Shown piece by piece: positions 1 to 2,105 of a stretch of 54,007 nucleotides of DNA (position 1 is the stretch's first letter; each line of letters starts with the position of its first letter). Both the position numbers and the translations under genes were made by a program. Source of the stretch: Basidiobolus ranarum (Eukaryota); contig JASJQH010000013.1 in the NCBI GenBank assembly GCA_040143965.1, forward strand, positions 1 through 54,007, read 5' to 3'. A model generated the notes under the pieces. That model did not search any database. It saw only the letters and a list, made by a program, of their open reading frames with translations, and was not told where the DNA came from.

Positions 1-2105
1 ATCGATGAGCCGATGAGCGAGATTGTTGGCGCGTTCATTAAGCTCGGTGTAACTCAACACCTGGTCTTCGAATACCAGTGCGGTGGCATGGGGAGTGCGC
101 TCTACCTGTTGTTCGAATAACTGGTGGACGCACTTAGTAGCGGGGTATTCACGATCTGTGGCATTCCACTCAACCAGCAACTGCCGGCGTTCTGAGGCAT
201 CAAGAAGCTCTATGTTACCAACCGTCAGTGTGGAATTGGTGGCGAGAGCATTCAGGACTTTTATAAAGCGGTGTTGATGTGCATTAAGTTCATATACTGT
301 ATAGAGTTCTGGATTTGCAGTAAAGTCAATCCTCAGGTAATTATTATCGGATAAGGCACATATCGTGACTGCGAGATCCTCAACCGGTCCATTAGGAAAA
401 GTGTGGTTTATCGATGAATGTTCACCAAATAATAGGCCTGAATCGAACGAAATAATATCGATCGTGGGCTTAAATAGTTGCATCTGCGCTAATCCAAGAC
501 TTCGTTGTAGTCCTTCACCGCAAAAACGTTGATGCTGATTCCCGTGTTGAATCTCTTGCGCCACTTGCTCCAGTAATACCGACAGGTTCATGTCTGATTG
601 AATATTGAGTCGTATTGGTAAAACATTTACTACCGGCCCTGGGATGCATCGATCTTGGTCAAAACTAGGAAGCATGGTTAATCCGAGCATCACATCCTTA
701 GCTCCAGTCCAACGATGTATATATGCTGCCATGGAACAAGTAGCAAATATTTGCAAACAGATTGCTTCAGAGGTAAAAGCACGTATCGGTTGAGAGGAGA
801 TGTAGGTTGTCTGGCGAAGGCAATGATGCAAACCAAGCTTTTGGTGATCCGCAAGTGTCACTGATTCAGGGCTATCTTCACAGCGTTTAGTCCAATATTC
901 GTGGTCCCCTTGAATCTGCGTAGAGGCATAATAACTAGCATCATTCCCAAGTAGTAATGACACTGGTTTGAAAGAAGTGTCACTCGTGATATCGCTCTTT
1001 ATCAAGGCACTATACACTTGTGCCACACGGTATGCGATTAGGGAGAGTCCTGCTTCATCCATCAGGATTCGGTGATAGCGCTGATACCAAAGAAATCGAT
1101 TAGGTGTGATTTTGAACAGAACAAAACAGAAAAGTGAGCCATGAAGTATGTTCACAGGCATTTCGTAGTCGGCCTGCATCCTGGCCTCTGCAGTTGCCTG
1201 AGGATCGTCTTCTGCACTGAGGTCGATCAAAGGCATGGACCATTCGGGAGACTCGACAAACTGTTGAATCCCCTCACTACTTTCAAAAAACTTCGCACGT
1301 ATGCTCTCGACTTCTGTAACCACCTGTCGCAAAGCCACTTCAAAAATACTTGGATCAATAGCACCACGGATATCCGTAAACTGACTGATGTTATAGATAG
1401 AACTGGAAGGATGGATTTTCTGAGCGAGCCAGATCTCTGTTTGTGCTGAGGACAAAGCTTGAAATCCCGAAATAGCTACATAAAATGAAATTATTGATCA
1501 TGCTAGTAATGGAGATTTTAGATGCTATATTAAGATTGTATTACTTGCCTAACAAGGGTATTTTCGAATTATTGCCTGGTTGACAGTTTATTCTCTCCAC
1601 GAGGCTTTTAGGATGTGTATGGCTTGCTTGTTTCAATCGAACTCTGGTCTGTTTCAGTAGCCTCTCCTGAAGGTCTTCAACTGACTTATTGGAAAACACC
1701 ATAAGGAAACTAAAGCACCCGTTGCTGAAGCAGCGAGTTGGATTCCATGAAACTATCGAAGACTAACGTTAGTCAGTTGATACCATATGGTCTAACTCTC
1801 GTCGATAGATTTTCACAACTACCTGATATAAGACAACTTGAAGCGGTGGAATTTTTATCAAGAGGTTCAACAGCAAGTATGCTGCCATTTTCTCGAGACT
1901 CAATATATACTGTCTCAGCAAGGTCAAGTGGCAGGTATCCGCTACAAGCTTCTAAGCCCACTTTCTTCTTTTCAATTCTTGCTGTCACTATCCCGTCATT
2001 GAGTGAGGAAAATATTTGCCATACTTTGAGCTCATCCAGGAATTGCTCTGGTGAGATAGCCGACCCAAAATGCTTAAGTTCAAAGGTAAATGGCGGAATA
2101 GGCAT
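1..2105 (-). CDS. Non-ribosomal peptide synthetase, 5' part (N-terminal extension + starter-type condensation domain + start of adenylation domain); runs off the left edge
   Basis: Minus strand 1475..1 is open: ...[13 protein letters not shown]...[14 protein letters not shown]...[14 protein letters not shown]...[10 protein letters not shown]...[59 protein letters not shown] (A1 motif). Upstream exons by eye: 2105..1823 and 1752..1549, joined in frame through a GT-AG intron (1822..1753) and a GC-AG intron (1548..1476). The start codon is less certain; an alternative in-frame ATG lies at 1702. Confidence 0.93.

Follow-up and report, generated by a model that had tools for sequence, protein, structure and literature searches.

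The 5' part of a bacterial-type nonribosomal peptide synthetase gene, probably resident in the fungus Basidiobolus ranarum, encodes a variant starter condensation domain

Bacterial-like nonribosomal peptide synthetase (NRPS) genes have already been published for Basidiobolus and the Mortierellaceae, as the initial annotation of the DNA studied here had stated. In Basidiobolus, such genes were proposed to be horizontal transfers, since they have beta-proteobacterial best matches, lie among fungal genes, show a host-like composition and contain few introns (passages covered of Tabima et al. 2020, PMC7466969). In Mortierella, an endobacterial donor was proposed for bacterial-like NRPSs with introns (parts covered of bioRxiv 10.1101/2020.08.21.262279). 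Here, we describe the left end of a 54,007-nucleotide stretch of Basidiobolus ranarum (assembly GCA_040143965.1, contig JASJQH010000013.1, positions 1 to 54,007; hereafter the window). It carries on its minus strand the start of an NRPS gene, which codes for an N-terminal extension, a starter condensation (Cs) domain, and the beginning of an adenylation (A) domain (Table 1). We estimate at roughly 0.75 the probability that the locus represents the 5' portion of an NRPS gene of bacterial type that now resides in an early-diverging fungus. On this view, a Burkholderia-related bacterium would have donated an intronless block by horizontal transfer, the route suggested earlier for NRPSs of Basidiobolus and Mortierella. 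Fused to this block would be a lineage-specific 5' part with two short predicted introns, which provides the start codon and approximately 165 residues.

The phenomenon is known from the literature and a gene model of the locus, protein P0121, is already public. The Basidiobolus NRPS genes of PMC7466969 represent the identical phenomenon, described there on the basis of A domains; the passages covered mention neither an N-terminal extension nor a Cs domain with the HR..DE motif found here. The B. meristosporus genes of that paper have a GC content of 48.7%, compared with a lower coding GC of 38-47% in the window, a difference that may point to another species. MpcA and MpbA from Mortierella alpina resemble the B. 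ranarum gene in their introns, host-like GC, proposed endobacterial donor, and a Cs-like N-terminus that lacks the HH motif. However, their Cs-like part is N-terminally truncated (approximately 250 residues) and is said to stem from LCL domains, whereas the Cs domain of the window is full length and similar to that of RzmA, and no extra N-terminal domain is reported for MpcA or MpbA in the parts of the preprint covered. RzmA is the rhizomide synthetase of Mycetohabitans (Paraburkholderia) rhizoxinica (PDB 7C1H, 7C1K, 7C1L, 7C1P, 7C1R, 7C1S, and 7C1U; PMC7804268). Its Cs domain is located at the very N-terminus, in contrast to the domain of the window, which follows approximately 165 extra residues and is encoded on a fungal contig with introns. 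A further relative, HabA from Mycetohabitans, is likewise an NRPS of endofungal Burkholderia, with a starter C domain termed 'likely inactive' in the passages covered of PMC9802438; this synthetase for the cyclic habitasporins differs in being bacterial and in having 8 modules. Against this background, only two details look unreported in the literature covered, namely the HR..DE motif and the orphan head piece. The locus itself would be one clean case of early-diverging fungi taking NRPS genes from Burkholderia-related bacteria and fitting them with host 5' exons and introns.

When spliced, the three exons reproduce the 654 residues of P0121 without a single difference, which bears out the coordinates, the 1475-bp exon, and the two introns read from the sequence in the initial annotation. 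The frame of exon 3 is open over 1..1497 (minus strand, 499 codons) and runs off the left end of the window. The window comprises a whole contig; both P0121 and the NRPS gene end at the contig end (position 1), and nothing further left is on record. Repetitive NRPS modules often break short-read assemblies, so that NRPS genes are cut at contig ends. Two further frames on the minus strand, 1773-2159 and 1541-1762, are colinear with the N-terminus of P0016, a B. ranarum protein from an independent assembly.

All splice donors and acceptors were listed with their phase. Excision of intron 1 gives ...CLISVSW..., the counterpart of ...CLVSVSW... in P0016. For intron 2, the donor junction TTAG/GCAAGT combines phase 1 with a strong consensus among the donors near the end of the exon-2 frame. 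A GT donor at 1544 (CAA/GTAATA) was rejected, as it is in phase 2 but the acceptor at 1476 and every usable acceptor require phase 1. A second one, at 1584 (GTCAAC), has the required phase but is weak. The donor adopted is the GC at 1548, which reproduces P0121. The predicted junctions are thus supported by frame, consensus, the homologue P0016, and the public model. They place the start of the intronless bacterial block at the acceptor of intron 2, a few residues ahead of the C domain.

The match of the C domain to PF00668 scores 164.4 bits, against a cut-off of 30.6, and covers profile positions 3-456 of 456. The match of the A domain to PF00501 remains below its cut-off of 29.9 bits because the domain is cut by the contig end. 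Similarly, partial NCBIfam matches to MxcG (342 bits) and EntF (201 bits) are far under the family cut-offs (2300 and 2400 bits), since only a third of the module is present. The closest solved relatives in a PDB sequence search are the RzmA starter condensation structures (E ~1e-124), followed by EntF (1.9e-47) and CDA-C1 (5e-47). An AlphaFold2 (AF2) model of P0121, made with 40 aligned sequences, has a predicted local distance difference test score (pLDDT) of mostly 80-98 over residues 170-600. In this model, the C domain has the two-lobed chloramphenicol-acetyltransferase-like fold. Foldseek places it on 7C1L with a target template modelling (TM) score of 0.94 and 46% identity, the next family being CDA-C1 at 27%.

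Among the characterized Cs domains of lipopeptide NRPSs, that of RzmA is therefore the closest kin by both sequence and fold. This sustains the label of a bacterial starter C domain given in the initial annotation, with Burkholderiaceae lipopeptide NRPSs as its precise part, while the alternative wording, EntF/DhbF-type, proves too broad (1e-124 versus 2e-47). The N-terminal C domains of EntF, MxcG, and DhbF, which are acceptors of aryl caps, share the domain family and the N-terminal C-A layout with the window domain but are much more distant from it than RzmA-Cs. The C domain is the first recognizable domain of P0121, yet approximately 165 residues stand before it. In 117 of 120 homologues, the homologous domain begins at most 60 residues from the N-terminus, the exceptions being P0016, P0085, and P0095.

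These homologues are the best 120 of 1565 matches with E up to 0.001, from 8000 scored candidates. The top matches, at 45-60% identity, come from Podila, Linnemannia, Mycoavidus, Mycetohabitans, an Apophysomyces-labelled record, and Basidiobolus, and lower-ranked ones from Firmicutes, Actinomycetota, and Rhizobium. Eight of the named matches in this set are fungal, all of them from early-diverging fungi, and the rest are bacterial; no Dikarya NRPS is present among them. We built a quick tree from the window sequence and 59 of the top 60 matches (60 rows; P0025 was dropped as partial) and a careful tree of 36 rows, comprising 30 ingroup rows and 6 chosen outgroups. The window sequence pairs with B. 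ranarum P0016 with a support of 99 in the quick tree and of 100/99 in the careful tree, the bootstrap of which was not fully settled. This pair lies inside a 30-row clade of Mycetohabitans, Mycoavidus, Mortierellaceae-labelled, and Basidiobolus rows, supported at 100 and 100/100, respectively. The outgroup rows that carry a name are all bacterial (Paenibacillus, Rhizobium, Streptomyces, and others).

The position of the C domain in a clade of endofungal Burkholderiaceae and early-diverging fungi with bacterial outgroups agrees with the horizontal acquisition proposed at the outset, and nesting within vertically inherited fungal NRPS clades is not seen in the C-domain trees. Most likely, the block would have been acquired from bacteria living inside fungi. 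We infer a direction from bacterium to fungus because the outgroups are bacterial and the block has no introns. The opposite direction, from a fungus into endofungal bacteria, or an ancestrally fungal clade would be compatible with the interleaving of fungal and bacterial rows on a backbone that lacks resolution, but appears very unlikely: all rows with a name that fall outside the 30-row clade are bacterial, the 1475-bp block is free of introns whereas two occur within 630 bp of the fungal-specific 5' part, and the Cs-A architecture is typical of bacteria.

Several results weigh against an origin as specific as the one outlined above. The ingroup backbone is without resolution in both trees, which is compatible with more than one donor lineage and number of transfers. 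In the careful tree, a single clade of the four Basidiobolus-type rows is not rejected by the approximately unbiased test (p-AU 0.384). Nor does this test reject a grouping of Mycetohabitans P0009 with the window pair (p-AU 0.405); the grouping is 3.67 log-likelihood units worse than the careful tree, and the same constraint is 17.3 units better than the free quick tree. Furthermore, endosymbiont contigs in fungal assemblies, or else very recent transfers, may account for some 'fungal' rows of this clade.

High identities are observed between individual fungal-labelled and bacterial rows. Podila verticillata-labelled P0021 and P0020 from Mycetohabitans sp. B8 are 89% identical over 951 residues, and Podila-labelled P0007 is 79% identical to the Mycoavidus sp. 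HKI protein P0005. When prokaryote genomes were searched for related loci, 27 were obtained, none of them from Burkholderiaceae. Most are distant, with 20-37% identity (Actinomycetota, Acidobacteriota, and others), and three are short matches to the C-A linker at 51-54%.

The NRPS gene shares its contig with Uso1/p115 and RabGAP-TBC and with fragments of alpha-amylase and M49 peptidase. The Uso1 fragment matches 16 proteins at E up to 1e-20, and the 11 that are named are all fungal, with the best match in Entrophospora (40%); no close relative was found within the length range searched. Exon 3 has a GC content of 45.3% and a GC content at third codon positions (GC3) of 42.6%, within the ranges of ten neighbouring open reading frames (ORFs; GC 37-47%, GC3 29-44%). 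Integration in the fungal genome is thus supported by the physical linkage to eukaryotic genes, seen in one assembly together with the parallel fusion in P0016, and by the host-like composition. Along with the intron-bearing 5' exons, these observations match the earlier view of the gene as a resident of the fungal genome.

That the join is an assembly chimera, or that exon 3 is contaminating bacterial DNA, had been named in the initial annotation as an outcome that would overturn this view. The location of the NRPS block at the very end of the contig and the resemblance of several fungal-labelled relatives to endosymbiont sequence fit such an artefact, to which we nevertheless assign an almost negligible probability. 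The independent assembly that contains P0016 has an equivalent fusion of extension and C domain, the GC of the block is like that of its neighbours, and no database protein exceeds 60% identity to the block. Moreover, the join is located inside a short intron with matching phases.

The catalytic HHxxxDG motif is not matched in the Cs domain. The first His and the Asp are retained, the second His is replaced by Arg, and the Gly by Glu; the signature WYQRYHH, quoted initially for this stretch, was a misreading at the second His. In the 120 best homologues, the second motif position is occupied by His in 114, Arg in 3, Ala in 2, and Tyr in 1, and the Gly position by Gly in 109 and Glu in 2, with Glu always paired with Arg at the His position. 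The Arg-bearing homologues are P0016 from B. ranarum (HRIIMDGEG), P0006 from Mycetohabitans rhizoxinica (HRIAMDEFG), and P0009 from Mycetohabitans sp. B5 (HRILLDEVG). P0139 from M. endofungorum, a member of the same 90% cluster as P0009, also has the HR..DE form, which the window domain therefore shares with three bacterial Mycetohabitans proteins. P0006 and P0009 are intact multi-domain synthetases, and P0139 is judged to be one by its 2049 residues (range 1935 to 2049 residues). A common origin of the HR-bearing rows (window, P0016, P0006, and P0009), a group of four picked post hoc, is disfavoured in the quick tree (p-AU 0.036). The records of P0139 and P0009 are partial at their C-termini. 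On reading the sequence, the end of P0139 gives the impression of the start of a methyltransferase insertion in the second A domain.

In RzmA numbering, which is the chain index minus 3 in the PDB alignment, H140 corresponds to Arg, G145 to Glu, and R148 to Leu in the window domain, which retains Q36, Q136, Y138, and M143. According to the parts covered of PMC7804268, H140 of RzmA positions donor and acceptor, and its replacement in H140V leaves only a trace of product. G145 needs to be without a side chain for the donor to enter, and the acyl length is determined by how far the side chain at position 148 extends. Given these roles, the changes at H140 and G145 argue against acyl transfer from acyl-CoA to the first amino acid. 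We see about even chances that the Cs domain, with the substrate-positioning His and the donor-admitting Gly altered, would no longer perform ordinary acyl-CoA lipoinitiation and would persist as a structural partner of the A domain. The acyl pocket would be kept, with Leu as its gate residue, and peptide assembly would begin from a free amino group, in the manner of NRPSs that make head-to-tail cyclic peptides. Precedents for an inactive Cs domain, proposed by the respective authors in the parts of these sources covered, may be seen in the MpcA and MpbA heads (bioRxiv 10.1101/2020.08.21.262279) and in the starter C domain of HabA (PMC9802438).

Some observations count against a loss of lipoinitiation. 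The H140V variant of RzmA is not fully inactive in the account covered (PMC7804268). The pair of Arg and an acidic residue recurs in P0016, P0006, P0009, and its close relative P0139, and this recurrence in large bacterial synthetases would be just as consistent with a working variant. For HR..DE domains, neither a structure nor an assay was found. The record contains the C domain and 38 residues of the A domain, where the gene is cut by the contig end, with no T domain, further modules, or termination domain from which a class of product would be read.

A working HR..DE starter domain, in which Arg and Glu replace His and Gly in substrate positioning and the peptide is N-capped, is a possibility that we rate clearly below the loss of lipoinitiation. 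Its donor would possibly be a small or charged acyl group, a carrier-protein-bound one, or one that the N-terminal extension supplies. The domain is full length and confidently modelled, it conserves the pocket residues of RzmA, and its gate is a mid-sized Leu; the invariable coincidence of Glu at the Gly position with Arg at the His position, and the acidic residue at or next to the Gly position in all of the window, P0016, P0006, P0009, and P0139, also fit a functional motif. Such activity is difficult to reconcile with the near abolition of turnover upon replacement of H140 in RzmA-Cs and with the argument that G145 tolerates no side chain (PMC7804268, parts covered). Degenerate starter C domains that are retained without catalysis are documented in the passages covered of bioRxiv 10.1101/2020.08.21.262279 and PMC9802438.

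The altered motif could also be the first sign of decay in a relic of an old transfer. We consider such a pseudogene improbable, since splicing yields 654 codons free of stops and frameshifts, with the splice phases preserved, and P0121 and P0016 are colinear throughout (655 columns, 52% identity) without any frame break. The same motif variant is present in the intact bacterial synthetases, and the truncation corresponds to the contig end and not to a lesion. Apart from the changed motif, decay would be in line with the end branches of the window and P0016 in the careful tree (0.38 and 0.45, compared with a median of 0.22) and with the observation of the gene as a fragment only.

The N-terminal extension of approximately 165 residues is composed of a conserved part, residues 1-123 (52% identity to P0016), and a variable linker of approximately 45 residues. 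A HMMER search of 1.84 billion cluster representatives with exon 1 returned P0121 itself, P0016 (E 3.4e-20, 53% identity), and a repeat protein, P0122 (E 9.2e-5). The latter matches only a short FxFxxKHFGxA stretch and was treated as chance. The sharing of the extension with P0016 suggests an affinity to Basidiobolaceae. In Pfam, exon 1 has no family and exon 2 has two chance-level matches only (E 0.016 and 0.044). The PDB sequence search gave no solved relative of the extension (best E 0.45), and a word-based search of proteins of 359-1145 residues returned P0121 itself only. Comparison with the ESM Atlas matched condensation domains in all cases, with feature scores of at most 0.90, few features in common, and a structural TM below 0.5. 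The AF2 pLDDT of the extension stays under 50 in the model of the full protein and is 31.9 for the extension by itself, and no fold is nameable. In the literature on Basidiobolus combined with NRPS or condensation-domain, no title on the extension or the HR..DE variant was found.

Conservation of the extension is comparable to that of the enzyme itself, which suggests that the extension is maintained. In a more speculative scenario, which we hold to be rather unlikely, the head of approximately 123 residues would be a new fungal domain that forms a non-canonical initiation unit with the Arg/Glu starter C domain. In that case, the HR..DE starter C domains shared with Mycetohabitans would not be dead but would constitute a functional subclass of their own and mark the donor lineage. 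If so, the head piece might deliver or replace a donor substrate that the altered donor channel cannot take. The recurrence of HR..DE in full-length starter C domains of endofungal bacteria and fungi, and an orphan N-terminal extension conserved at the level of the enzyme, are possibly useful to NRPS specialists; they alter no general view unless a function is shown.

Table 1. Coordinates of the NRPS gene parts, encoded domains, and neighbouring genes in the window (a slash marks the splice site).
Feature	Position	Strand	Description
Exon 1	1823..2105	-	ATG at 2105; 94 codons + 1 base of the N-terminal extension; 100% to P0121
Intron 1 (predicted)	1753..1822	-	70 nt, GT-AG, phase 1, CTGACTAAC branch-like site
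Exon 2	1549..1752	-	Remainder of the conserved extension (to ...VEDLQ) and unconserved linker of ~45 residues
Intron 2 (predicted)	1476..1548	-	73 nt, GC-AG, AG/GCAAGT...TGTAG, phase 1, 25% GC
Exon 3	1..1475	-	Intronless; starter-type C domain, C-A linker, and start of A domain; cut by contig end
Condensation domain	175..1467	-	Pfam PF00668, E 4.7e-48; ORF residues 11-441, P0121 residues ~166-596
Variant C3 motif	1054..1074	-	H-R-I-L-M-D-E for HHxxxDG; P0121 H297, R298, D302, E303
Adenylation domain, first 38 residues (...LAHRLI)	4..117	-	PF00501 profile positions 1-39, 26.9 bits
Zn-dependent alcohol dehydrogenase gene	3887-5016	-	Split over at least 3 frames, so intron-bearing; 1.8 kb upstream of NRPS start
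Pyridine-nucleotide-disulphide oxidoreductase (Pyr_redox_2)	6929-8131	+	Shares the contig with the NRPS gene

Between the NRPS start and the alcohol dehydrogenase gene, no long ORF with a family match is present in 2106-3886. This upstream region is AT-rich, with a GC content of 33.9% over 2106-3800 compared with 38.8% for the whole window.

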